Positions 14,837-26,457 of a DNA stretch of 64,000 nt are shown here, one piece after another. Numbering within the stretch: the stretch's first letter is position 1; every line of letters starts with the position of its first letter. The stretch is from Clostridia bacterium. GTDB taxonomy: Bacteria > Bacillota > Clostridia > Oscillospirales > Acutalibacteraceae. The DNA lies in assembly GCA_017624735.1 (NCBI GenBank), contig JAGAMK010000027.1:9280-73279 (forward strand). The letters run 5' to 3'. A program made the translations under genes and the position numbers. The notes beneath the pieces are model-generated. The model saw only the letters and a program-made list of their open reading frames with translations. It was not told where the DNA came from and made no database searches.

Positions 14837-16831
14837 ATGCAAAGAGTTGGCGTTTTTGTATGTTGGTGTGGTAGTAATATTGCAGGTACAGTTGATGTTG
14901 AAGCAGTATCAGAAGCCTTGAAAAGCGAACCAGGAGTAGTCTTTTCCACTAACTATCAATATATGTGCTCACAGGCTGGTCAGGATATGATTAAAGAAGC
15001 TGTTAAAGAGCATAATCTTACAGGAATTGTTGTTTGTTCTTGTTCACCAAGAATGCACGAAGCAACATTCCGTAAAACTGCAGCTGCTGCAGGACTCAAC
15101 CCATATATGGTTGAAATCGCAAATATCCGTGAACAGTGTTCATGGGTACATAAGGATATGCTTACAGGTACTGAAAAAGCAATTATCCTCGGTAAAGCTG
15201 CTATTGCAAAAGTGAATCTCAACACTCCACTCACTCCGGGTGAGTCACCTGTAACAAAGAGGGCTTTGGTTATCGGTGGTGGTATTGCAGGTATCCAGAC
15301 TGCACTTGATATTGCAGATGCAGGTTTCCCTGTTGATATCGTTGAGAAAAAGCCTACAATTGGCGGTAAAATGGCACAGCTTGATAAAACATTCCCAACA
15401 CTTGACTGTGCTGCTTGTATTCTCACTCCTAAAATGGTTGATGTGGCGCAGAATGAAAAAATCCGCATCTTCTCATATAGTGAAGTTTCAGAAATTAAAG
15501 GCTTTGTTGGTAACTTTGATGTAACTATCAAAAAGAATGCTCGTTTCGTTAAGGAAGATGTTTGTACAGGTTGTGGTGCTTGTGTTGATAAGTGTCCAAT
15601 GAAGAAAATCCCTAATGAATTCAATTTAGGTATGGATAATCGTAAGGCTATCTACATTCCATTTGCTCAGGCAGTGCCAAAAGTTGCAACAATCGACCCT
15701 AACGCATGTAATATGCTTAAAAATGGTAAATGCGGTCTTTGTGCAAAGGTTTGTACAGCAGGTGCTATTGACTATACACAGAAGGATGAATACATCGAAG
15801 AAAAGTATGGCGCAATCGTAGTTGCAACAGGCTTTAATCCAATCAGTATGGATAAATTTGACGAGTTTGCTTATAACCAGTCAAAGGATGTTATCACATC
15901 TCTTGAATTTGAGCGTCTTACAAATGCTGCAGGTCCTACTGCAGGTAAACTTTTAAGACCATCTGACGGAAAGCATCCTCACACAATCGTATTTGTTCAG
16001 TGCGTAGGCTCACGTTGTGATGCTTGTGCTGAAAAGGGTAAAGAGTATTGCTCAAAAATTTGTTGTATGTACACAGCAAAACACGCAATGCTTACAAGAG
16101 ATAAATATCCTGATACTGAAGTTTACGTGTTCTACATTGACGTAAGAACTCCGGGTAAGAACTTTGACGAATTCTATCGTCGTGCAGTTGAAGAATATGG
16201 AGTTAAATATATCAAGGGTATGGTAGGCAAGGTAACACCAGAAGGTGATGTACTTAAAGTTCAGGCATCAGACCTTATCGCAAACAAACAGCTTCATATT
16301 GATGCTGACTTGGTTGTTCTTGCAGCAGCAATTGAGCCTGATAAGTCTGCTCGTCCACTTGCTACAATGCTTACAGCAAGTATGGATACTAACGACTTTT
16401 TTACAGAAGCTCATCCAAAACTTCGTCCTGTTGAAAGCCCAACAGCAGGTGTCTTCCTTTCAGGTGCTTGTCAAGGACCTAAGGATATTCCTGAAACAGT
16501 TTCTCAGGCAGGTGCAGCAGCGTCAAAGGTTATCGGACTTCTTGCAAAAGATAAGTTGACAGGTAACCCATGTGTTGCTCATTCAAATGAACTTATGTGT
16601 AACGGTTGTTCATCTTGTGAAAGAGTTTGTCCTTACGGTGCAATCACTTATAGTGATAAAGAATTCCGTATGCCGGACAGAACAACTAAGATTAGAAGAG
16701 TTGCATCAGTTAACCCAGCAGTTTGTCAGGGTTGCGGTGCTTGTACAGTAGCTTGTCCATCAGGTGCTATGGACCTTAACGGATTTGCTAACTCACAGAT
16801 TATGGCGGAGGTTGACGCAATATGCAAGTAA
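14837..16831 (+). CDS. hdrA: HdrA-like FAD/FeS flavoprotein (putative bifurcating subunit)
   Basis: VFVCWCGSNIAG N-terminus and GGGIAGIQTALDIADAG FAD fold. Four CxxCxxCxxxCP-type motifs. 664 aa. Confidence 0.85.
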   Translation: MQRVGVFVCWCGSNIAGTVDVEAVSEALKSEPGVVFSTNYQYMCSQAGQDMIKEAVKEHNLTGIVVCSCSPRMHEATFRKTAAAAGLNPYMVEIANIREQCSWVHKDMLTGTEKAIILGKAAIAKVNLNTPLTPGESPVTKRALVIGGGIAGIQTALDIADAGFPVDIVEKKPTIGGKMAQLDKTFPTLDCAACILTPKMVDVAQNEKIRIFSYSEVSEIKGFVGNFDVTIKKNARFVKEDVCTGCGACVDKCPMKKIPNEFNLGMDNRKAIYIPFAQAVPKVATIDPNACNMLKNGKCGLCAKVCTAGAIDYTQKDEYIEEKYGAIVVATGFNPISMDKFDEFAYNQSKDVITSLEFERLTNAAGPTAGKLLRPSDGKHPHTIVFVQCVGSRCDACAEKGKEYCSKICCMYTAKHAMLTRDKYPDTEVYVFYIDVRTPGKNFDEFYRRAVEEYGVKYIKGMVGKVTPEGDVLKVQASDLIANKQLHIDADLVVLAAAIEPDKSARPLATMLTASMDTNDFFTEAHPKLRPVESPTAGVFLSGACQGPKDIPETVSQAGAAASKVIGLLAKDKLTGNPCVAHSNELMCNGCSSCERVCPYGAITYSDKEFRMPDRTTKIRRVASVNPAVCQGCGACTVACPSGAMDLNGFANSQIMAEVDAICK

Positions 16832-17256
16832 ATGAATATAAACCATTAATCGTTGCATTTTGTTGCAACTGGTGTTCTTATGCGGGTGCTGACCTTGCAG
16901 GTAACAACCGCCTTAACTATCCGGCAGAGGTAAAGATTATTCGTGTTCCTTGCTCATGCCGTGTAAACCCGATGTTTATTCTCCGTGCATTCCAGCGCGG
17001 TGCTGATGGTGTAATCATCTGTGGTTGTCACCCGGGTGACTGTCACTATACATCAGGTAACTACTACACTCGTCGTAGAATGGCAGCACTTTTTTCAATG
17101 CTTGATTATCTCGGTATCGAAAAAGAGCGTACTCGTGTTGAATGGGTTTCAGCTGCTGAAGGTGCAAAGTTTGCAGCAACTATGAACGATTTCGTTGAAA
17201 AGGTAGTTGCTTTAGGTGAAAACAAGAGATTGGAGGATTTACGATGCAAAAAATAA
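16822..17256 (+). CDS. mvhD: MvhD/FlxD-like [2Fe-2S] protein
   Basis: FCCNWCSYAGADLAG...VPCSCR...CGCHPGDCHY. 10-nt overlap with the hdrA-like gene. Confidence 0.85.
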   Translation: MQVNEYKPLIVAFCCNWCSYAGADLAGNNRLNYPAEVKIIRVPCSCRVNPMFILRAFQRGADGVIICGCHPGDCHYTSGNYYTRRRMAALFSMLDYLGIEKERTRVEWVSAAEGAKFAATMNDFVEKVVALGENKRLEDLRCKK

Positions 17257-18242
17257 CTCGCGAACAGTTGATTGAAAAAGCAGTTGCTTTGCTCGCAGAC
17301 GGAACAGTATCTTGTGTTCTCGGTTGGAGCAAAGGTGAGTTTGATTATGATGTAACTCCTGCAATTTTCAACAATGAAGAAGAATTAAAAGCAAATTTCG
17401 TGTTCAACGATTTCTGCGGTGTGAATTTCTCAAAATATCTTGTTGCAAAAACACAGAAATGTGAAGGCAAAATCCTTGTTTTCCTTAAACCATGTGATAC
17501 ATATAGCTTTAACCAGTTATTGACTGAACACAGATTTGACCGTGAAAAGGTTTATGCAGTTGGTATCCCTTGTGAAGGTATGGCTGATGTTGCAAAGGTT
17601 AAGACAATCTGTGGTGATGGTATCGCATCAATCAATTTTGATGGTGAAAATTTAGCAGTTACAACTCTTTATGAGGATGCGCCTGTTATGATTTCAACAA
17701 ATGATGTACTTGCAGAAAGATGTGTAAACTGCAAGAGCAAGAAACACGTCGCTTATGATGAATTAATAGGCGACGAAGGTGAAGTTATCGAGTCAAATCG
17801 TTTTGACGAAGTTGAAAAACTTGAAGCAATGACTCCTGATGAAAGATTTGCTTTCTGGCAGAATGAACTTTCTCGTTGTATTCGTTGTAATGCTTGTAGA
17901 GATGCTTGTCCTGCGTGTACTTGTGAAAAATGTGTTTTTGACAACCCTAATTCAGGTGTTGAAAATAAATCACCTGCAAATAGCTTTGAAGAAAAAATGT
18001 TCCACATTATCAGAGCATTCCACGTTGCAGGTCGTTGTACTGACTGTGGCGAATGTTCAAGAGTTTGCCCACAGAACATTCCTTTACACCTTCTTAACCG
18101 TAAGTTCATCAAAGATATGAATGAGTTCTACGGTGAGTATCAGGCTGGTGCAGAGGTTGGCTCACGTGCTCCTTTGGTTGACTACACAACTGAAGATTTA
18201 GAACCAGGTGAAGTTTTTAATAGGGGGGATATGAATGCGTAA
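17244..18242 (+). CDS. FeS protein, FlxC-like (4Fe-4S dicluster; assignment C versus B by gene order only)
   Basis: CIRCNACRDACPACTCEKC and CTDCGECSRVCP motifs. Overlaps both neighbours. Confidence 0.6.
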   Translation: MQKITREQLIEKAVALLADGTVSCVLGWSKGEFDYDVTPAIFNNEEELKANFVFNDFCGVNFSKYLVAKTQKCEGKILVFLKPCDTYSFNQLLTEHRFDREKVYAVGIPCEGMADVAKVKTICGDGIASINFDGENLAVTTLYEDAPVMISTNDVLAERCVNCKSKKHVAYDELIGDEGEVIESNRFDEVEKLEAMTPDERFAFWQNELSRCIRCNACRDACPACTCEKCVFDNPNSGVENKSPANSFEEKMFHIIRAFHVAGRCTDCGECSRVCPQNIPLHLLNRKFIKDMNEFYGEYQAGAEVGSRAPLVDYTTEDLEPGEVFNRGDMNA

Positions 18243-19263
18243 ATGTTCTCTTGATAAAATGAACCTTGTTTTTGCTGAAATCGCAAAAAATGCAGCCTTG
18301 TATCTTCCTGTTGACCAGAATGACGGCAGTGCTGTTTATAAGAAATGGGAAGAGGGTACAGTTTGGAGCAATGCTCTTAATACTGTAAGAAGCCCTAAGG
18401 ACTTCTTCTTCCCACAGACTGAAGATTTGATGAAATTCACAACTTCAGGTAAAAATATTGAAATTATTGATACAAGAAGTGAATCAGAAGATTTTGTTAT
18501 CTTCGGCGTTCGTGCTTGCGACGTAAAGAGTTTTGACATTCTTGACCGAGTTTTCTTAACAGAGCCTGTCGATAGCTTCTATGGTTCAAGAAGAGAACAT
18601 GGTGTTATCATTTCTCTTGCTTGTACAAGACCTTCAGAAACTTGCTTCTGTAAGACATTCGGTATTGATGCATCTGAACCGGCAGGGGATATCTCAGCAT
18701 GGAAAACAGAAACAGAAATTTTCTTCAAGGCTAATACAGAAAAGGGTGAAGAACTCTTAAATAAACTTTCAGCTCTGACAGAAGATTGTGATGATTCTAC
18801 TGTTAATGAACAGAAAGCAAAAATCAATGCAATTATGAACAAACTTCCACTTAAAGACCTTACAACAGATGCTTTTGGTGGTGGAAAAACAAACGAATTC
18901 TTTAATTTACCTGTGTGGGATGAGCTTTCAGGGACTTGTCTTGGTTGTGGTACTTGTACATTCGTTTGTCCTACTTGTCAATGCTATGATATTAAAGATT
19001 TCAATACAGGTAATGGTGTTATCCGTTACAGATGTTGGGACTCTTGTATGTACTCTGATTTCACTAAGATGGCTCACGGTAACAATAGACTTACTCAAAA
19101 AGAACGTTTCCGTCAGAGATTTATGCACAAACTCGTGTATTTCCCTGAAAACAATGATGGCGAATTCAGTTGTGTAGGTTGTGGACGTTGCCTTGCAAAA
19201 TGCCCGATTTCAATGAATATCGTAAAGGTTATGAAAAAGTTAGGAGGAGCAACAAATGAATAA
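18235..19263 (+). CDS. FeS protein, FlxB-like (AsrA/sulfhydrogenase-beta-like)
   Basis: CLGCGTCTFVCPTCQCYD and CVGCGRCLAKCP motifs. Overlaps both neighbours. Confidence 0.6.
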   Translation: MRKCSLDKMNLVFAEIAKNAALYLPVDQNDGSAVYKKWEEGTVWSNALNTVRSPKDFFFPQTEDLMKFTTSGKNIEIIDTRSESEDFVIFGVRACDVKSFDILDRVFLTEPVDSFYGSRREHGVIISLACTRPSETCFCKTFGIDASEPAGDISAWKTETEIFFKANTEKGEELLNKLSALTEDCDDSTVNEQKAKINAIMNKLPLKDLTTDAFGGGKTNEFFNLPVWDELSGTCLGCGTCTFVCPTCQCYDIKDFNTGNGVIRYRCWDSCMYSDFTKMAHGNNRLTQKERFRQRFMHKLVYFPENNDGEFSCVGCGRCLAKCPISMNIVKVMKKLGGATNE

Positions 19264-20089
19264 TCGTGTAGAAACATTGATTCCAAAACTTGGTGTTATT
19301 ACTGATGTTCGCATTGACACTCCCGACATTAAGACTTTTAGAGTTGTAACACCTGATGGTAAAAAAGCATTCGACCACAGACCAGGTCAGTGTGCAATGC
19401 TTTCAATCCCCGGTGTTGGTGAGGCTATGTTCTCTATTACATCCTCTCCTACAAACGAAGAATTCATGGAATTCTCAATCAAAAAATGTGGCTGTGTAAC
19501 AGATTGGTTACATCAGGCAGAAGTTGGTCAGCAGATTACAATAAGAGGACCTTATGGTAATCCATTCCCTGTTGATGATGTGTTTGCAGGAAAAGACCTT
19601 CTCTTTATTGCTGGTGGTGTTGGTTTAGCACCTCTTCGTTCAGTAATTAACTATTGTCGTCATTATCGTGACCGTTATGGCAAGATTGATATTGTTTATG
19701 GGTCAAGAAGTAAAGACGATTTGCTTGACTATCAGGAAATTATCAACGAATGGTCAACTGATGCAGGTGTTAATGTTCACCTTACAATCGACAATCCTCA
19801 GGAAGGTTGGGATGGTCACGTTGGTTTCGTTCCTAACTATGTTAAGGAATTAGGCTTTGATACAAATAAGGTTGCAGTTTTGTGTGGACCTCCAATCATG
19901 ATTAAGTTCACATTGGAAGGACTTTGTGCAATTGGATTCGAAAAGACAAACATTTACACAACTCTTGAATTGAGAATGAAATGCGGAGTTGGTAAATGCG
20001 GAAGATGTAATGTTGGTGCTAAATATGTTTGCAAAGACGGTCCTGTTTTCCGTTGCGACGAATTAGACGAACTTCCGGCAGAATATTAA
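19256..20089 (+). CDS. flxA: FlxA-like FAD/NAD(P)H-binding oxidoreductase with C-terminal [2Fe-2S] (PyrK/AsrB fold)
   Basis: FNR-like RPGQCAML...FSITSSP and GGVGLAPL motifs. C-terminal CGVGKCGRCNVG...C. Confidence 0.75.
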   Translation: MNNRVETLIPKLGVITDVRIDTPDIKTFRVVTPDGKKAFDHRPGQCAMLSIPGVGEAMFSITSSPTNEEFMEFSIKKCGCVTDWLHQAEVGQQITIRGPYGNPFPVDDVFAGKDLLFIAGGVGLAPLRSVINYCRHYRDRYGKIDIVYGSRSKDDLLDYQEIINEWSTDAGVNVHLTIDNPQEGWDGHVGFVPNYVKELGFDTNKVAVLCGPPIMIKFTLEGLCAIGFEKTNIYTTLELRMKCGVGKCGRCNVGAKYVCKDGPVFRCDELDELPAEY

Positions 20090-20103
20090 TGGAGGAGAAT
20101 ATC

Positions 20104-20778
20104 ATGGAAAAAATGGTTAATATATTCCTTTTCGGCAAAAAATACGAAGTGCCGGAAAATTTAACAATTATGACCGCTATGGAATATGCCGGTTATCAGC
20201 TTGTTCGTGGTTGCGGTTGTAGAAACGGTTTCTGTGGCGCTTGTGCAACAATTTATCGTATTAAGGGCGACAAAGAACTTAAAGCATGTCTTGCTTGCCA
20301 GACAAAGGTTGAAGATAATATGTATATTGCTACATTGCCTTTCTTCCCACTTGTTAAGCAGGTTTATGACATTGAAAAAGTGCCTGTAAATGAAACAGTT
20401 ATGATGCAACTCTATCCTGAAATTTACTCATGTATCGGTTGTAATGCTTGTACAAAGAGTTGCACTCAAGACCTTAATGTAATGCAGTATATCGCTTATG
20501 CACAACGCGGCGATTTTGAAAAATGTGCTGAAGAATCATTTGACTGCGTTATGTGTGGTGTTTGTTCATCAAGATGTCCTGCTGGTATTTCTCATCCACA
20601 GGTTGCAATGCTCGCAAGAAGAATTAATGGTAAATATCTTGCTCCTGGTTGCGGTCACCTTGAAGACAGAGTTAAGGAAATCAAAAATGGTGATTTCAAC
20701 GAATTGATTGAAGCTCTTATGCAGAAACCAATTGAAGAGATGAAAGAACTTTATAACACACGTGAAATCGAGAAGTAA
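20104..20778 (+). CDS. SdhB/FrdB-like iron-sulfur subunit (2Fe-2S plus two 4Fe-4S-type motifs)
   Basis: CGCRNGFCGACAT...C, then CIGCNACTKSC and CVMCGVCSSRCP. ATG 20104 is preceded by ggaggag. The track start at 20029 overlaps flxA and is unsupported. Confidence 0.75.
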   Translation: MEKMVNIFLFGKKYEVPENLTIMTAMEYAGYQLVRGCGCRNGFCGACATIYRIKGDKELKACLACQTKVEDNMYIATLPFFPLVKQVYDIEKVPVNETVMMQLYPEIYSCIGCNACTKSCTQDLNVMQYIAYAQRGDFEKCAEESFDCVMCGVCSSRCPAGISHPQVAMLARRINGKYLAPGCGHLEDRVKEIKNGDFNELIEALMQKPIEEMKELYNTREIEK

Positions 20779-20793
20779 GGAGGAAAGTAGTAT

Positions 20794-22392
20794 ATGTATT
20801 CAGAAAGATTTCAGAAATCAATTGCTGCAGTTGAAGCAGCAAGAGAAAAGAATATTGCTTTAGAGCCACAGCGTATGACAGCTCAGCAAAAAGAAGACTT
20901 ACTTGCAACTTTCCATCCTGACTATAAAAAAGATGAATTTGCAGTATTAAAAATCGGTGCTAATAAAGGTGATAAAGTTCCAACAGAATTAGCAGAAATG
21001 CTTCAGGCTCACAGCCGTATTACTGCTGACAGTGTTGACCTTTCAAACCCTGATTATGAAACAGATGTTCTTATTATCGGTGGTGGCGGTGCAGGTGCAT
21101 CTGCAGCTATTGAAGCAAATGAAACTGGCGCAGATGTTATGATTGTAACAAAACTCAGAATAGGTGATGCTAACACAATGATGGCTGAAGGTGGTATTCA
21201 GGCTGCAGATAAGCCAAACGATTCACCGGCAATACACTTTGTTGATGCTTTCGGTGGCGGACACTTTGCTGCTAAGAAAGAACTTCTTTCAAAGCTTGTT
21301 TGCGATGCTCCTGAAGCAATTCAGTGGCTTAGCAATCTTGGTGTTGAATTCGACAAAGATGCTGACGGCACAATGGTTACAACTCATGGTGGTGGCACTT
21401 CACGTAAACGCATGCACGCTGCTAAGGATTATTCAGGTGCAGAAATCATGAGAACTCTTCGTGATGAAGTATTCAATCGTCAGATTCCTGTAGTTGATTT
21501 CACAGCTGCAATCGAACTCATTATGGACGAAAACGGCAACGCTGCCGGTGCAGTTCTTATGAATATGGAAACAAAAGAACTTCTTGTTGCTAAGGCAAAG
21601 ACAGTTATCATTGCAACAGGTGGTGCAGGTCGTATGCACTATCAGGGCTTCCCTACATCAAACCACTATGGTGCAACTGCTGACGGTCTTGTACTTGGTT
21701 ACAGAGTAGGTGCAAAGCTTCTTTATGCTGAAACACTTCAGTACCATCCAACAGGTGTTGCATATCCGGAACAGATTTTTGGTGCTCTTGTTACTGAAAA
21801 AGTACGTTCACTTGGTGCAAAACTTGTTAACGTTAACGGTGATGTATTTATGCATCCTCTCGAAACACGTGACGTTGCTGCTGCTTCAATTATCCGTGAA
21901 TGTTCAGAACGTGGCACTGGTGTTGACACCGGAGATGGTCAAGGCGTTTGGCTTGACACTCCGATGATTGAAAAAATTGGTGGCGAAGGCACAATTATGA
22001 AGAGAATTCCTGCTATGTGGAGAATGTTTGACAAGTATGGCATTGATATTCGCAAAGAGCCAATTCTCGTTTACCCAACATTACACTATCAGAACGGAGG
22101 TCTTGATATCACTCCTGACTGTATGACAACAAATGTTGAAAACTTGTTTGTTGCTGGTGAGGCTGTTGGCGGTATCCACGGCAGAAACAGACTTATGGGT
22201 AACTCATTGCTTGATATTATCGTGTTCGGTAGAAGCGCAGGTCAAAATGCTGCTGCTAAAGCAAAGAATGTTACCGTAGGCGAGCTTACACTTAAGCACA
22301 TTGAAAAATTTGAAAATGAAATCGCAGAAGCTGGAATTGATACAGATAAAGTATCACCAAAACTTTTGCCTGATTACACAAACAAAAGATAA
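20794..22392 (+). CDS. SdhA/FrdA-family FAD flavoprotein (soluble fumarate reductase-like)
   Basis: DVLIIGGGGAGASAA FAD fold, plus QYHPTG and LHYQNGG motifs. Asn occupies the position of the covalent-FAD His (DANTMMAEGG versus RSHTVSAQGG). Confidence 0.75.
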   Translation: MYSERFQKSIAAVEAAREKNIALEPQRMTAQQKEDLLATFHPDYKKDEFAVLKIGANKGDKVPTELAEMLQAHSRITADSVDLSNPDYETDVLIIGGGGAGASAAIEANETGADVMIVTKLRIGDANTMMAEGGIQAADKPNDSPAIHFVDAFGGGHFAAKKELLSKLVCDAPEAIQWLSNLGVEFDKDADGTMVTTHGGGTSRKRMHAAKDYSGAEIMRTLRDEVFNRQIPVVDFTAAIELIMDENGNAAGAVLMNMETKELLVAKAKTVIIATGGAGRMHYQGFPTSNHYGATADGLVLGYRVGAKLLYAETLQYHPTGVAYPEQIFGALVTEKVRSLGAKLVNVNGDVFMHPLETRDVAAASIIRECSERGTGVDTGDGQGVWLDTPMIEKIGGEGTIMKRIPAMWRMFDKYGIDIRKEPILVYPTLHYQNGGLDITPDCMTTNVENLFVAGEAVGGIHGRNRLMGNSLLDIIVFGRSAGQNAAAKAKNVTVGELTLKHIEKFENEIAEAGIDTDKVSPKLLPDYTNKR

Positions 22393-23757: not shown

Positions 23758-24786
23758 TCAGAGCTTATCTGCAATATCAAAGATTAACTTTTCAGTTTTA
23801 TCCCATCCAAGACAAGGGTCTGTGATAGATTTACCATAGATGTGTTCTCCAATTCCTTGTGCTCCATCTTCGATATAACTTTCAATCATTAATCCCTTAA
23901 CTAATCGCTTGATGTCTCCGTTTTGATTTCGACTGTGAACAATATCTTTAGCAATACGAATCTGTTCAAGATATTTTTTGCCAGAATTGTTGTGGTTTGT
24001 GTCAACAATAACCGACGGGTTGGCAAGACCTGATTTTGCGTACATTTCACTTACTTGAATAAGGTCTTCATAATGGTAGTTTGAGACGCTCTTACCGGTA
24101 TAATCAATGTAACCACGTAAAATAGCGTGTGCCAAAGGGTTTCCTTCACTTGTGACTTCCCAACCACGATAAAGAAAGGTGTGGCTAGATTGTGCAGCAG
24201 TAATTGCATTCATCATAACACTAAGGTCTCCGCCTGTAGGGTTTTTCATACCTGCAGGAATGGCAAGTCCGCTTGCAGTCAGTCTGTGTTGTTGATTTTC
24301 TACTGAGCGAGCGCCAATGGCAACATAAGAAAGAAGGTCGGAAAGATAACGATGATTTTCAGGATAAAGCATTTCGTCAGCGCACGAGAAATCATAATCT
24401 CGTAATGCAGCTAAATGCAGTTCGCGAATTGCGACAATTCCCTTATACATATCGGGCTTGGCATCAGGGTCCGGCTGGTGAAGCATTCCTTTATATCCTT
24501 GGCCGGTTGTTCTTGGCTTGTTTGTATATATACGTGGAATAATGATGATTTTATCTGAAACCTGTTCTTCTACTTTACGAAGACGAGAAATGTAATCAAG
24601 TACAGGTTCGCTGTGGTCTGCAGAACATGGACCAATAACTAAAATGAATTTATCAGATGTTCCTTCAAATATTTTACTGATTTGCTCGTCACGCTCTGCT
24701 TTTACTTTAATCATTTTTTCTGTTACGGCATATTCTTTTTTTACTTCCTGTGGAATAGGAATCTTCCTTTGAAAATTCATACGCAT
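23758..24786 (-). CDS. 3-deoxy-7-phosphoheptulonate (DAHP) synthase, class I
   Basis: VIGPCS, KPRTT..GYKGM and IGARS.ENQ motifs. ATG 24786 lies 8 nt after gaggt. Alternative starts are TTG 24792 and ATG 24780. Confidence 0.9.
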   Translation of the reverse strand: MRMNFQRKIPIPQEVKKEYAVTEKMIKVKAERDEQISKIFEGTSDKFILVIGPCSADHSEPVLDYISRLRKVEEQVSDKIIIIPRIYTNKPRTTGQGYKGMLHQPDPDAKPDMYKGIVAIRELHLAALRDYDFSCADEMLYPENHRYLSDLLSYVAIGARSVENQQHRLTASGLAIPAGMKNPTGGDLSVMMNAITAAQSSHTFLYRGWEVTSEGNPLAHAILRGYIDYTGKSVSNYHYEDLIQVSEMYAKSGLANPSVIVDTNHNNSGKKYLEQIRIAKDIVHSRNQNGDIKRLVKGLMIESYIEDGAQGIGEHIYGKSITDPCLGWDKTEKLIFDIADKL

Positions 24787-24827
24787 ATACAATTACCTCT
24801 ACTTTCTTTTTAAGCATATGTTTGCCG

Positions 24828-24879
24828 TTGAAAATAAAAATTCCGCATATGTTTAATGCAAAAGCATAACATTTGCGGA
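24828..24879 (-). terminator. Leader terminator (attenuator) between the leader peptide and DAHP synthase
   Basis: The minus strand reads tccgcaaatgttatgc-tttt-gcattaaacatatgcgga followed by atttttatttt, about 45 nt before the DAHP synthase start. Confidence 0.65.
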
Positions 24880-24905
24880 CTGTCTGTTATATTCAACCCA
24901 AAGAT

Positions 24906-24983
24906 TTATTCTTTGGATATCACAAAAGATGGGCAGCCCTTTTTAGAATAATAAAAGTAATAAAAGAATATATTATTTTTCAT
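24906..24983 (-). CDS. Candidate leader peptide MKNNIFFYYFYYSKKGCPSFVISKE (aromatic-codon run)
   Basis: My manual reverse-complement translation. GGAGG lies 8 nt upstream of the ATG. Seven consecutive Phe/Tyr codons (FFYYFYY). The stop sits in a ccaaaga/tctttgg hairpin. Confidence 0.6.
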   Translation of the reverse strand: MKNNIFFYYFYYSKKGCPSFVISKE

Positions 24984-25015
24984 TATTGCTACCTCCGTTG
25001 TGATTTAATATGTTC

Positions 25016-25044
25016 ACTATATCATGTTAAAGCGATAAAGTCAA
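25016..25044 (-). promoter_or_regulatory. Candidate promoter for the leader-DAHP synthase transcript (TTGACT-17 nt-TGATATAGT)
   Basis: The reverse complement reads ttgact ttatcgctttaacatga tatagt, about 25 nt upstream of the leader RBS. Confidence 0.5.
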
Positions 25045-25197
25045 TACCTTTTTAATATCTTTTGACGGATTGTTGAAGCTATTATATACTTTGTATTGCT
25101 TTTAATTTTATTTGAGTTATAATTATTTTAATGATACAATTAAAGTGTTAAGTATTTAGATTATTATCAAAGTGTAAATTGAAAGGAGAAATACGCT

Positions 25198-26457
25198 GTG
25201 GCAAAAGAGAAAAATAAGAAGTTAAAAAAGGGCTTAATCATTTTCATTTCTGTTGTTATGGTAATTGCAATTGTAATAACAGGTGTTAATGTTTTATCGG
25301 TTCAGAATCTTTTGAAAAAGGGAGCTGCGTATAATAAAGTTGAAATTGAAAATCAGCTTGTTCCCGAAAAGGATGAAAACGGAAACTGGTATTTTACTAC
25401 CGATAGTGATTTCAAGGTAATGCACCTTACCGATATTCATATCGGCGGCGGATTTCTTTCAAAAACTGTGGATGAAAAAGCTCTTAATGCAGTTGCAGCT
25501 ATGGTGACAAAAGAAAAACCTGACCTTGTTATTGCAACAGGAGATATTACCTTCCCCGTGCCTTACAGGGCAGGAACATTCAATAATCATAGCGGGATAA
25601 AGGCATTTGCAAATCTTATGGAAAGCCTTGGTGTTTATTGGGACGTTACCTTCGGTAATCATGATGCAGAGGCATATTCATATTTTGACAGAGAAGCCGT
25701 TGCAGAGTTTTATGAAAACGAAGATTATAAGTATTGTTTGTTCCAGGCAGGTCCTGAAGATGTTGACGGTTATGGAAACCACACCATTGAAGTTAAAAAT
25801 TCAAAGGGTATTATTACTCAGGCGATAATTTTAATTGATTCTCAGGCATATATTGAAGACAACATCATTGAAAGCATTAAGGGGACATATGATAACATTC
25901 ACCCTAATCAGGTTGAGTGGTATGAGTCAGAAATCAAGAGAATGAATGCTGAAAATGAAAAAATCAATAAAGATGCAACACCGGTTAAATCGCTTGCATT
26001 CTTCCATATTCCTCTTGTTGAAATGGACGATGCATGGACTGAATTTAAGAATAACGGATATAATGACACAGACAACTTTAAGTATACTGAAGGTATAATC
26101 GGTGAACTTGGCAGACAGGTTTGTTGCGGGTACGGTGAAGACGATATGTTTGAAAAGATGCAGGAACTCGACTCAACAAAGGCAATGTTCAATGGTCACG
26201 ACCATGTTAACAATACAACCTTTGAATATAAGGGAATCACTTTTAGTTACGGTTACAGTATTGACTACTTTGCATATTCTGGTATTGATAAACTCGGCTC
26301 ACAGAGAGGATGCACAATGATTACCTGTAAGCCTGATACAAGTTTTACCATTGATAAATACAACTACTATTCCGACAGATATGACCTCGAAGGCTTCAGT
26401 CGAGAAGAAGTAACAATGCAGTTTGAAGATATTACAAATCAGGTTATACCTGAATAA
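25198..26457 (+). CDS. Membrane-anchored calcineurin-like metallophosphoesterase
   Basis: GTG start after aaaggaga, with an N-terminal TM helix. Motifs HLTDIHIGG, GDITF, GNHD, FFHIP and GHDH. Confidence 0.8.
   Translation: MAKEKNKKLKKGLIIFISVVMVIAIVITGVNVLSVQNLLKKGAAYNKVEIENQLVPEKDENGNWYFTTDSDFKVMHLTDIHIGGGFLSKTVDEKALNAVAAMVTKEKPDLVIATGDITFPVPYRAGTFNNHSGIKAFANLMESLGVYWDVTFGNHDAEAYSYFDREAVAEFYENEDYKYCLFQAGPEDVDGYGNHTIEVKNSKGIITQAIILIDSQAYIEDNIIESIKGTYDNIHPNQVEWYESEIKRMNAENEKINKDATPVKSLAFFHIPLVEMDDAWTEFKNNGYNDTDNFKYTEGIIGELGRQVCCGYGEDDMFEKMQELDSTKAMFNGHDHVNNTTFEYKGITFSYGYSIDYFAYSGIDKLGSQRGCTMITCKPDTSFTIDKYNYYSDRYDLEGFSREEVTMQFEDITNQVIPE

Follow-up and report, generated by a model that had tools for sequence, protein, structure and literature searches.

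The gene for DAHP synthase (3-deoxy-7-phosphoheptulonate synthase, DAHPS) in the window, that is, the whole 64-kb stretch of DNA analysed, is preceded by a leader that we read, with a probability of roughly 0.8, as a ribosome-mediated leader-peptide transcription attenuator tying transcription of the gene to the availability of charged tRNA-Phe and tRNA-Tyr. On the minus strand, a promoter, a GGAGG sequence, a 25-codon open reading frame (ORF), a stop-codon hairpin, a terminator hairpin with a U-tract and the DAHPS gene follow one another. This order and the positions of the elements, including the ribosome-binding site (RBS) of the DAHPS gene and the seven consecutive Phe/Tyr codons ahead of it, had been given in a preliminary description of the locus and were confirmed base for base. 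The features are as follows.

25044-25016, minus strand: sigma-70-type promoter TTGACT-17-(TG)aTATAGT, 10/12 matches, with the upstream TG
24988-25006, minus strand: 5′-terminal segment A of the transcript (AAAUCACAACGGAGGUAGC), holding the Shine-Dalgarno (SD) sequence and acting as the partner of segment B in helix P1
24996-24992, minus strand: SD sequence GGAGG, 8 nt before the ATG at 24983
24983-24906, minus strand: leader ORF, 25 codons plus TAA (MKNNIFFYYFYYSKKGCPSFVISKE), with homologous ORFs in 41 distinct leaders
24948-24968, minus strand: sensor, UUC UUU UAU UAC UUU UAU UAU, seven consecutive Phe/Tyr codons
24919-24939, minus strand: segment B (GGGCUGCCCAUCUUUUGUGAU), starting 8 nt past the last aromatic codon
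24918-24896, minus strand: hairpin P2 (AUCCAAAGA / UCUUUGGGU; ccaaaga/tctttgg), with the UAA in its loop
24908-24906, minus strand: stop codon TAA of the leader ORF, in the P2 loop
24877-24895, minus strand: A-rich linker and segment C (ACAGACAGUCC, 24887-24877)
24831-24878, minus strand: predicted intrinsic terminator, consisting of an imperfect hairpin (24878-24843, CCGCA...UGCGG), AA and UUUUUAUUUU (24840-24831)
24854-24845, minus strand: first copy of a 10-mer (AAACATATGC), in the 3′ arm of the terminator
24814-24823, minus strand: second copy of the 10-mer (AAACAUAUGC), outside the conserved element
24786-23758, minus strand: regulated gene, DAHPS coding sequence (342 aa), with its RBS GAGG at 24799-24796

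The encoded DAHPS is of the aroFGH type (TIGR00034, 262.8 bits against a cut-off of 173.2; also PF00793), and the gene that follows is convergent, which leaves DAHPS monocistronic here. Transcription probably starts at about 25009, about 25 nt 5′ of the leader AUG; in the orthologous leaders, TTGAC(T/A)-17-TAnnAT lies at an equal distance. The 25-codon ORF thus has its own SD sequence and start codon within the 5′ leader of a biosynthetic gene, and a predicted intrinsic terminator lies between it and the structural gene. Both the ORF and the terminator are left uncalled at present.

The run of seven Phe/Tyr codons is the longest in any frame across the 64-kb window, and of 200 locally shuffled windows, only 5 contained a run of at least seven such codons anywhere. 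In 41 distinct orthologous leaders, the run is found again, in frame and preceded by an SD sequence and an ATG, and chance is therefore excluded. All 41 leaders have five to eight Phe/Tyr codons in an 8-codon window, and Phe or Tyr accounts for 277 of the 328 codons in the best of these windows. Across the leaders, the run shows a codon-periodic U-(U/A)-(U/C) pattern, with U at position 1 in 86%, U or A at position 2 in 94%, and U or C at position 3 in 94%. Phe and Tyr are freely interchanged among the leaders, no Trp occurs in the 41 leader peptides, and the other two frames of the run read I/F/T/L, or L with stops. The results show that a cluster of codons for the pathway's own amino acids is conserved as codons ahead of the genes concerned (DAHPS, tyrA, pheA and aroB).

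The leader is present at 16 of the 19 closest orthologous DAHPS loci, all from Oscillospirales metagenome-assembled genomes and chosen through the DAHPS protein rather than the leader, and about 30 metagenome contigs also carry it; the short ORF with the aromatic run, whose presence in orthologues the preliminary description had proposed as a check, is thus found well beyond this strain. By contrast, no ORF with a Phe/Tyr run was present in about 24 sequences that matched the same DNA pattern by chance. The family, comprising more than 50 sequences, was described by covariance model R1. Its members always directly precede genes of the aromatic pathway and share their strand: at locus L015, the leader heads tyrA-DAHPS-pheA-aroB, and at L128, it heads DAHPS-pheA. 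At L013 and L018, where the DAHPS is 83% and 81% identical, respectively, a T-box with a UUC (Phe) specifier stands at the position of the leader. A Phe T-box thus replaces the leader in sibling species, implying that another device there responds to the same signal. Tandem pairs of leaders occur at eight loci, and the second copies have no promoter.

Downstream of the run, conservation applies to the RNA and not to the reading frame of the peptide tail. The frame is shifted by one-base deletions in L003 and L004, and early stops occur in L002, L010 and L012; in all five, the sequence of segment B is kept. These findings bear on the possibility that the ORF is a small gene in its own right and encodes a hydrophobic, Phe/Tyr-rich micropeptide, that the hairpin and U-tract are its own terminator, and that the DAHPS gene is transcribed from another promoter. 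Such a gene would account for the strong promoter, the SD sequence, the terminator and a KGCP motif that recurs past the run. It would account neither for the frameshifted tails in L003 and L004 nor for the constant location immediately 5′ of aromatic-pathway genes, the promoter-less second copies in tandem or the substitution by a Phe T-box, and no promoter-like site on the gene strand was found from the terminator to the DAHPS start. We therefore regard a separate micropeptide gene as extremely unlikely.

The leader RNA folds more stably than expected by chance (z = -5.9; none of 200 shuffles was as good). In the minimum free energy structures, helix P1 arises from segment A, including the SD sequence, and segment B (duplex of -18.1 kcal/mol; z = -4.3 compared with shuffled A), and compensatory changes were found in P1 (helices 1 and 2). 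In hairpin P2 (helix 3), all nine pairs show changes on both sides among 51 sequences; the stop codon lies 31 nt from the start of segment B in 30 of the 41 leaders. The base of the terminator (helix 4) is conserved, with compensations of G-C to A-U. Taken together, P1, P2 and the terminator base are paired in 80.6% of cells compared to 33-45% in slid alignments, and 22 of their 30 pairs show changes on both sides; the observed values were reached by none of 500 shuffles.

The terminator hairpin folds at -14.9 kcal/mol and is followed by AAUUUUUAUUUU (24842-24831), and an equivalent hairpin (-14 to -21 kcal/mol) with a U-tract after it is present in all orthologous leaders. A simple consensus terminator scan did not flag the hairpin at 24878-24843 because its stem is imperfect; the terminator was therefore assessed by thermodynamic folding and comparative analysis instead. 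The last two C residues of segment C (24878-24877) double as the basal bases of the 5′ arm of the terminator.

Segment B, which is nearly invariant in alignments A1-A3, has two alternative partners, namely segment A (P1) or the linker with segment C, the latter being the proposed antiterminator. The complementarity of B and C holds in 95.4% of cells compared to 27-40% in slid alignments, the RNAalifold consensus pairs B with C, and for the B:C duplex, the median energy is -15 kcal/mol and the median z is -3.4. No compensatory changes were detected in B:C (the observed score was reached by 116 of 500 shuffles), since B and C are almost invariant, and the metagenome sequences were picked by a pattern that fixes B and C. 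B:C is weaker in the window strain than in its relatives (-10.2 kcal/mol) because C reads ACAGAC there, whereas the consensus ACGGAC is found in conspecific strains. The search for mutually exclusive terminator and antiterminator folds suggested in the preliminary description thus yielded conserved pairings of this kind. The competition that it had envisaged exists, although not within the terminator region: it is a three-way competition, in which the pairing of the SD region with the post-run segment is set against the pairing of the post-run segment with the terminator base.

Other pairings were considered and rejected. An antiterminator formed by UCACAA in the 5′-UTR and UUGUG in the 5′ arm of the terminator, seen by eye, comprises about 5 bp and shows no joint change across the leaders. 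Pairing of the Phe/Tyr run either with the A-rich codons of the N terminus or with the 3′ arm of the terminator involves low-complexity sequence, and for the latter, the regulatory sign would be wrong. The 10-mer aaacatatgc occurs twice, as the preliminary description had stated, but the role in alternative pairing that it had been offered did not hold: the repeat is absent from 14 orthologous leaders and is broken by an SNP in two strains of the same species. Being strain-specific, it is not part of the mechanism.

A leader as structured as this one, with covarying helices, might instead act through direct binding of a metabolite, a protein or a tRNA, as a riboswitch or a TRAP-like or T-box-like RNA would, the short ORF being incidental. 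The nearly invariant, single-stranded-looking GGGCUGCCCG and ACGGACAGUCC are conserved in the manner of ligand-binding RNAs, and the SD sequence of the small ORF lies inside a helix. Comparison with the Rfam 15 families, however, gave no match of the window leader to any riboswitch, T-box or leader model even at E ≤ 10. Amino acid leader families (Phe_leader, RF01743 and others) gave no match at E ≤ 10 between 24000 and 26000, and none reached the gathering score in the window or in the 18 leader-bearing loci. A T-box leader has a Stem I with a specifier loop and a T-box sequence forming the antiterminator bulge. The T-box model (RF00230) matched neither at the gathering threshold nor at E ≤ 10, and no Stem I, specifier or GGUGGNACC core was found in the leader; the same scan returned T-boxes of 110-115 bits in L013 and L018. 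The earlier observation that the leader has no T-box core is therefore borne out. TRAP leaders of the Bacillus trp type contain about 9-11 (G/U)AG triplets spaced 2-3 nt apart, whereas the 224-nt leader contains no chain of even three. In addition, the invariant segments are explained by the overlapping pairings A:B, B:C and the terminator base, and RNA structure alone explains neither the U-(U/A)-(U/C) periodicity nor the in-frame interchange of Phe and Tyr in 41 leaders. Direct ligand binding thus appears very improbable.

An attenuator that reads ribosome position is the preferred reading, and the pairings point to the following mode of action. The SD sequence of the nascent transcript would take up a ribosome and the leader would then be translated; as the SD sequence is sequestered in P1, the ribosome must load before segment B is transcribed. 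When Phe and Tyr are plentiful, the ribosome would pass the seven Phe/Tyr codons and then segment B and reach the stop codon in the P2 loop, where it would mask B or stand between B and C. Behind the ribosome, B would re-pair with the SD-containing segment A (P1), leaving C free, so that the full terminator hairpin (24878-24843) could form beside the U-tract and transcription would end at about 24831-24835. Because P1 forms first, a leader without any translation is also predicted to end in termination. If Phe-tRNA or Tyr-tRNA runs short, the ribosome would stall within the run and separate A from B; the exposed B and its U-rich tail could then pair with the A-rich linker and C in a long helix capped by P2. 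This helix would take the two basal C residues of the terminator and leave the end of the terminator stem 2 bp farther from the U-tract, and the shortened stem would allow RNA polymerase to read through into the DAHPS gene. We infer that the leader ORF is translated, that stalling and premature termination take place, and that the loss of two basal pairs suffices to relieve termination.

The effect of ribosome position on folding was computed for 15 leaders. The result showed that the probability of the basal terminator pair was 0.01-0.35 with the A site at positions up to about the second-last aromatic codon, apart from one higher value (0.49, in L004), and jumped to about 0.95 once the ribosome was past the run. 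In all 15 leaders, the in silico switch falls where the run ends; it involves an overlap of 2 bp, about 1.7 kcal/mol and a B:C pairing without covariation. With no ribosome, the probability was about 0.9 in 10 of the 15 leaders; for untranslated L001, L008, L005 and L012, termination was not predicted to be efficient (0.09-0.62). The proposed antiterminator shares only 2 bp with the terminator and its computed preference is about 1.7 kcal/mol, and the predicted switch is therefore thermodynamically shallow.

This small overlap would fit a mechanism in which translation of the leader acts otherwise than by intrinsic termination, through Rho-dependent polarity, mRNA stability or initiation of DAHPS translation; in the window strain, the extra copy of the terminator 3′-arm sequence could also re-pair after readthrough. 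Against this, a hairpin with a U-tract is found in every leader, with compensatory changes, the SD sequence of the DAHPS gene is unpaired in the predicted structures, and the 10-mer that forms the extra copy is not conserved. We consider an effect other than on termination quite improbable.

Attenuators of this general kind are known. In E. coli pheL-pheA and pheM-pheST (Rfam Phe_leader), a short ORF with Phe codons, alternative hairpins and a terminator read tRNA charging through the position of the ribosome. The window leader has in common with them the ORF with an aromatic run, the alternative hairpins and the intrinsic terminator; the Phe_leader model does not match it. It differs from pheL-pheA in that the run is of mixed Phe/Tyr codons, the regulated enzyme is the first of the common pathway rather than of the Phe branch, the leader SD sequence is locked with the post-run segment, and no more than 2 bp are shared between antiterminator and terminator. 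The Phe T-box of L013 and L018 shares with the leader the uncharged tRNA-Phe signal, the intrinsic terminator and the position before the DAHPS gene, whereas it binds the tRNA directly and needs no translation. In Firmicutes, textbook control of the aromatic amino acid genes is by T-box and TRAP. The contrast that the preliminary description drew with this pattern holds in part, since leader-peptide devices outside Proteobacteria have precedents in aroR-aroF, the Lactococcus Leu/phe leader and an Acholeplasma motif.

The Leu/phe leader RF01743 we take to be an attenuator whose leader peptide has many Leu or Phe codons; its model does not match the window leader at E ≤ 10, and clade and sequence differ. 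It is a Firmicute leader-type element listed for Lactococcus lactis (Weinberg et al., 2010, PMC2864571). As described in PMC11802643 (citing Neshat et al., 2014), a leader peptide with Phe and Tyr codons precedes an operon containing a DAHP synthase gene in Corynebacterium glutamicum (aroR-aroF), and ribosome stalling raises transcription. By that description, the two systems share a Phe/Tyr leader peptide before DAHP synthase; C. glutamicum, however, is an actinobacterium, its sensor is only Phe-Tyr-Phe compared to five to eight Phe/Tyr codons here, and the account reports that Tyr availability has no effect there. A further precedent is uORFC-13-1 (Brewer et al., 2021, PMC8632094), a candidate uORF attenuator with 24 representatives in Acholeplasma and environmental sequences, located exclusively upstream of DAHP synthase/aroF. 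It comprises -35/-10 boxes, an RBS, a start codon, U-rich Phe codons and an extra paired element, with an intrinsic terminator next to it. It agrees with the window leader in gene association and general layout; compared by description only, it has a U run coding for at least one Phe in Acholeplasma, whereas the present family has five to eight mixed Phe/Tyr codons in Oscillospirales. The protein search made for the Acholeplasma comparison returned only relatives at least 85% identical.

The kind of leader is thus known, and the Oscillospirales family, set apart from uORFC-13-1 by description only, appears to be undescribed. A broader reading, to which we give about even odds, is that it forms an undescribed family in gut and rumen Oscillospirales that senses both Phe and Tyr and is unusual in three points of design. 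First, the post-run segment would lock the leader SD sequence, allowing one ribosome per transcript and termination by default. Second, the modelled antiterminator would take from the terminator no more than its two basal G-C pairs. Third, tandem duplications are frequent and their second copy is without the SD lock. On the same reading, the family is evolutionarily interchangeable with the Phe T-box, and it may also control an operon for a ligase and indolepyruvate:ferredoxin oxidoreductase and thereby the reductive formation of aromatic amino acids from arylacetates.

A conserved leader-peptide attenuator in gut and rumen Clostridia would mean that the classical proteobacterial solution is used there too, and sibling species with either the leader or a Phe T-box before the same gene offer a natural comparison of two readers of tRNA charging. 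With its mixed run, 2-bp overlap and tandem copies, the family raises the questions of how strong a competing structure must be to overcome a terminator and of how a dynamic range arises. Adding the family to RNA libraries would improve the annotation of thousands of uncultured Oscillospirales genomes. A covariance-model search found no further copies of the leader elsewhere in the 64-kb window or in loci L020-L080. Small Phe/Tyr-rich ORFs with an SD sequence do occur in L020-L080, none of them in the leader position: two in L067 and one in L070 are all downstream of the DAHPS gene, and a further one in L079 lies about 2.2 kb upstream.

The region upstream of the DAHP synthase gene (minus strand, 24600-25300) was re-read base by base, and every element listed in the preliminary description was present:

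25044-25016, minus strand: promoter TTGACT-17-TATAGT with TG upstream (10 of 12 consensus matches)
24996-24992, minus strand: Shine-Dalgarno sequence (SD) GGAGG, then an 8-nt spacer (sequence reading)
24983-24906, minus strand: leader ORF of 25 codons, ATG at 24983, MKNNIFFYYFYYSKKGCPSFVISKE (sequence reading)
24918-24896, minus strand: 9-bp hairpin (P2) with the TAA stop (24908-24906) in its loop (folding)
24878-24843, minus strand: terminator, an imperfect hairpin followed by AAUUUUUAUUUU (folding, -14.9 kcal/mol)
24799-24796, minus strand: DAHP synthase RBS GAGG (sequence reading)
ATG at 24786, minus strand: DAHP synthase gene, 342 aa, aroFGH type

The protein matched TIGR00034 with 262.8 bits (cut-off 173.2) and also PF00793. 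The gene is monocistronic in the window, with a convergent Asp-Al_Ex permease gene downstream and a divergent metallophosphoesterase gene upstream. A promoter-like TTGACG-17-TATACT (25062-25090, plus strand) adjoins the leader promoter, points the opposite way and is positioned for the metallophosphoesterase gene (25198-26457). The 231-nt leader fold had a z of -5.9 against shuffles. The run of seven Phe/Tyr (F/Y) codons exceeds every other in the whole window, whichever the frame; among 200 locally shuffled windows, 5 contained a run of at least seven such codons, so the run by itself is only modestly improbable, and the case rests on context and conservation.

Relatives were gathered by a scan with the DAHP synthase protein, one genome per species, which gave 80 loci, all from uncultured Clostridia (named Acutalibacteraceae, Oscillospiraceae, Eubacteriales and similar) and with a DAHP synthase 68-85% identical to that of the window. 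The window protein is present on 11 contigs of the assembly collection (ENA, NCBI, Logan) and is attributed in NCBI to a Clostridia bacterium MAG. The aromatic run, pointed out earlier in the window alone, recurs in the leaders of orthologues: of the 19 closest loci (L001-L019), 16 have a short ORF with SD, ATG and F/Y run ahead of the gene (for example MNNMFFFYFYFKKDCPISEFSQK, MRANKFFYYFYYFAKGCPSSVNSRA and MFVSNASYYYYYFCKGCPSFVNAEL). A metagenome search with a DNA pattern from two conserved blocks returned 56 stretches. About 30 are true leaders, each with an F/Y ORF and a terminator and nearly all standing before a DAHP synthase orthologue; the other 24 or so are GC-rich chance matches, none with an F/Y ORF. 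A covariance model of the leader found one copy in the window and 52 across the related loci overall, and zero in the more distant loci L020-L080. Two copies are degenerate or truncated, suggesting leader decay in some lineages: the copy at L136:227-421 has an eroded run (MFIFYSFSFLRGCP...) and lacks a clear SD, and the DAHP synthase-like ORF behind it is disrupted; at L106:1642-1803 the terminator is lost.

Across 41 distinct leaders, Phe and Tyr fill 5-8 codons of the best 8-codon window (277 of 328 codons overall). Within the run, 86% of first codon positions are U, 94% of second positions are U or A and 94% of third positions are U or C; the alternative frames read I/F/T/L, or Leu with stop codons. 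Phe and Tyr exchange freely along it, from FYFYFYF to FYYYYYYF, and Trp occurs in none of the 41 peptides. This constraint on the run as codons argues against the ORF being incidental. The block after the run, AAGGGCUGCCCG, is nearly invariant as RNA, and the peptide there is not conserved: one-base deletions shift the frame in loci L003 and L004, where KAAR and KGCRHMR replace KGCP, and several leader ORFs stop early. That the post-run RNA is kept while the peptide frame varies argues against a functional micropeptide as the product of the ORF. In 30 of the 41 leaders the stop codon lies 31 nt past the start of this block, inside the P2 loop. The pattern fits a run that acts as a sensor, followed by a structural RNA segment.

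The leader is ordered as segment A (5′ end with the SD, 25006-24988 in the window), AUG, A-rich Asn/Lys codons and the F/Y run, followed by segment B (24939-24919) with a U-rich tail, P2, an A-rich linker, segment C (24887-24877) and the terminator. In a model-fitted alignment of 51 distinct sequences, which is biased toward the model structure, P1 (the A:B helix), P2 and the terminator base were paired in 80.6% of cells compared with 33-45% for slid partners, with changes on both sides in 22 of 30 pairs; none of 500 shuffles reached these figures. P2 stands out as the strongest helix, with double changes in 9 of 9 pairs (for example AU to GC), and compensatory arms are evident in the raw sequences (CCAAAGA/UCUUUGG, CUCAAAA/UUUUGAG and CCGAAAA/UUUUCGG). 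These comparisons show that the three helices covary.

RNAalifold on 14 leaders paired B with segment C (GGGCUG.CCGU with ACGG.CAGUCC), and the terminator stem begins with the two C that end segment C. Only one of A:B and B:C can thus form at a time, and B:C is in competition with the terminator's two basal G-C pairs, so that alternative terminator and antiterminator structures, which the preliminary description had suggested looking for, are indeed predicted. B and C were complementary in 95.4% of cells compared with 27-40% when slid, although 116 of 500 shuffles reached this score and the metagenome sequences had been chosen by a pattern that itself fixes B and C. Since B and C hardly vary, B:C lacks compensatory evidence and is the least proven helix of the model; the invariance is understandable, since B pairs with both A and C, and C also belongs to the terminator.

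Duplex calculations put A:B at -12 to -22 kcal/mol in single leaders and first tandem copies, and B:C at about -14 to -18 kcal/mol in almost every copy; in the window strain B:C is weaker, at -10.2 kcal/mol. To model the ribosome, all RNA as far as 13 nt beyond the first nucleotide of the codon in the A site was removed, and the remainder was folded to the end of the terminator stem. For A-site positions no further along than roughly the penultimate aromatic codon, the basal terminator pair had a probability of 0.01-0.35 in 15 of 15 leaders (with a single 0.49, in L004); with the ribosome past the run this probability was about 0.95. Without a ribosome it was about 0.9 in 10 of 15 leaders, because A:B holds B; the exceptions were L001 (0.09), L008 (0.36), L005 and L012 (about 0.6) and L014b, a second tandem copy (0.00). 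The stalled-state minimum free energy structure has a long helix with P2 as its cap, formed by B plus its U-rich tail on one side and the A-rich linker plus C on the other; this helix adjoins a terminator lacking its two basal pairs. The structure is favoured over the complete terminator by only about 1.7 kcal/mol. In this folding model the switch point is shown to coincide with the end of the F/Y run. For the specific A:B/B:C/terminator switch we regard the odds as about even.

Ribosome-mediated attenuation, as proposed in the preliminary description, is favoured by the conserved F/Y-codon run and the covarying helices, and on this comparative support we put leader-peptide attenuation in general at a probability of about 0.8. 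When Phe and Tyr are plentiful, the ribosome would cross B and reach the stop codon in P2, P1 would re-form behind it, the terminator would be completed and transcription would end near 24831-24835. A ribosome stalled in the run would keep A and B apart, exposing B and allowing B:C to form; the terminator stem would then stop two pairs plus the usual 1-2 nt spacer short of the U-tract, and polymerase would read through. The stem of an intrinsic terminator must reach near the U-tract, the basal G-C pairs mattering most, and the overlap in the Bacillus subtilis trp leader is likewise small (4 nt). Locking of the SD in A:B implies that ribosome loading has to precede the transcription of B, which comes about 60-75 nt later, and that an untranslated leader terminates. 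So shallow a switch would have a modest dynamic range, which may be why tandem copies exist.

Two tandem leaders precede a single DAHP synthase gene in eight loci (L014, 2555-2975; L016, L081, L085, L092, L107, L110 and L114). The first copy has the promoter and the SD-sequestering helix, and the second has neither. The SD region of the second copy, AAGGAGAAA, cannot pair with B (A:B -2 to -6 kcal/mol, compared with -12 to -22), and for this reason the second copy is predicted to allow readthrough except when B is actively covered by a ribosome. Strains of the window's own species (L137-L140, compared with 24787-25050) differ at only 3 of 264 leader positions: one is the top pair of P2, another changes ACAGAC of segment C in the window to ACGGAC, the family consensus, and the third breaks the second copy of the 10-mer aaacatatgc. 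The two copies of this 10-mer noted earlier do exist in the window, but the role in alternative pairing suggested for them does not hold: the repeat is absent from 14 orthologous leaders, and is thus not part of the mechanism, and it is broken within the species.

Rfam 15 gave zero matches at gathering score across the entire window. At E <= 10, 24000-26000 gave only weak sub-gathering matches, with no amino acid leader (neither Phe_leader nor Leu/phe leader) and no T-box, and 18 related leader-bearing loci gave no match on the leader. T-box or TRAP control of the window leader was considered and rejected: the leader has no TRAP-type triplet array, and the Rfam scan and a motif search bore out the first impression that it has no T-box core.

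Classical leader-peptide attenuators include E. coli trpL, pheL-pheA and pheM-pheST, and by mechanism class the window leader is probably one of them; none of the Rfam leader models matched it. The closest system in function is a Corynebacterium glutamicum leader, aroR (Phe-Tyr-Phe), which precedes the aroF operon and reacts when Phe is limiting (PMC11802643, citing Neshat et al. 2014). The closest in gene association and layout, compared by description only, is uORFC-13-1, a candidate motif of Acholeplasma and environmental sequences found exclusively upstream of aroF beside a terminator (PMC8632094). Another Firmicute, Lactococcus lactis, has a Leu/phe leader (RF01743; PMC2864571), and Firmicutes are said to control such genes by T-boxes, not classical attenuation (PMC1262725). 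The proposed mechanism is classical, yet it stands in an under-studied, abundant gut/rumen clade and in a family absent from Rfam, whose unusual features, namely the mixed F/Y run, the SD lock, the 2-bp overlap, the tandem copies and the T-box swap, are worth testing.

That swap is seen in two sibling species (L013 and L018, DAHP synthase 83% and 81% identical to the window's), where a T-box (RF00230) takes the leader's place (L013:2651-2902, 110 bits; L018:908-1155, 115 bits) with a specifier region GAA-UUC-A, that is, Phe. It occupies the same position, and close relatives thus sense the same signal with a different device, an apparent evolutionary swap of two tRNA-charging sensors. At L015:1784-6168 the leader stands in front of an operon of four genes, tyrA (prephenate dehydrogenase), DAHP synthase, pheA (chorismate mutase-prephenate dehydratase-ACT) and aroB, which fits a sensor reading both Tyr and Phe; in L128 it heads a tyrA remnant, DAHP synthase and pheA.

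A Tyr-rich leader copy, MIFNNKFYYYYYYFEKGCPSFVKNEI, at L089:5342-5531 (minus strand, downstream genes to 1088) and also in L120, lies upstream of genes for an acyl-CoA ligase and the alpha and beta subunits of indolepyruvate:ferredoxin oxidoreductase (TIGR03336, 713.8 bits; NF005325, 287.8 bits), which may form a route from arylacetates to aromatic amino acids. The regulatory link is uncertain because a second promoter-like site lies between the leader terminator and the ligase. Elsewhere in the window, seven same-strand genes (14837-22392, plus strand) include, by eye, HdrA-like, MvhD-like, iron-sulfur and flavoprotein (AprA/fumarate-reductase-like) subunits, and the cluster appears to resemble an electron-bifurcating or sulfur-redox complex.
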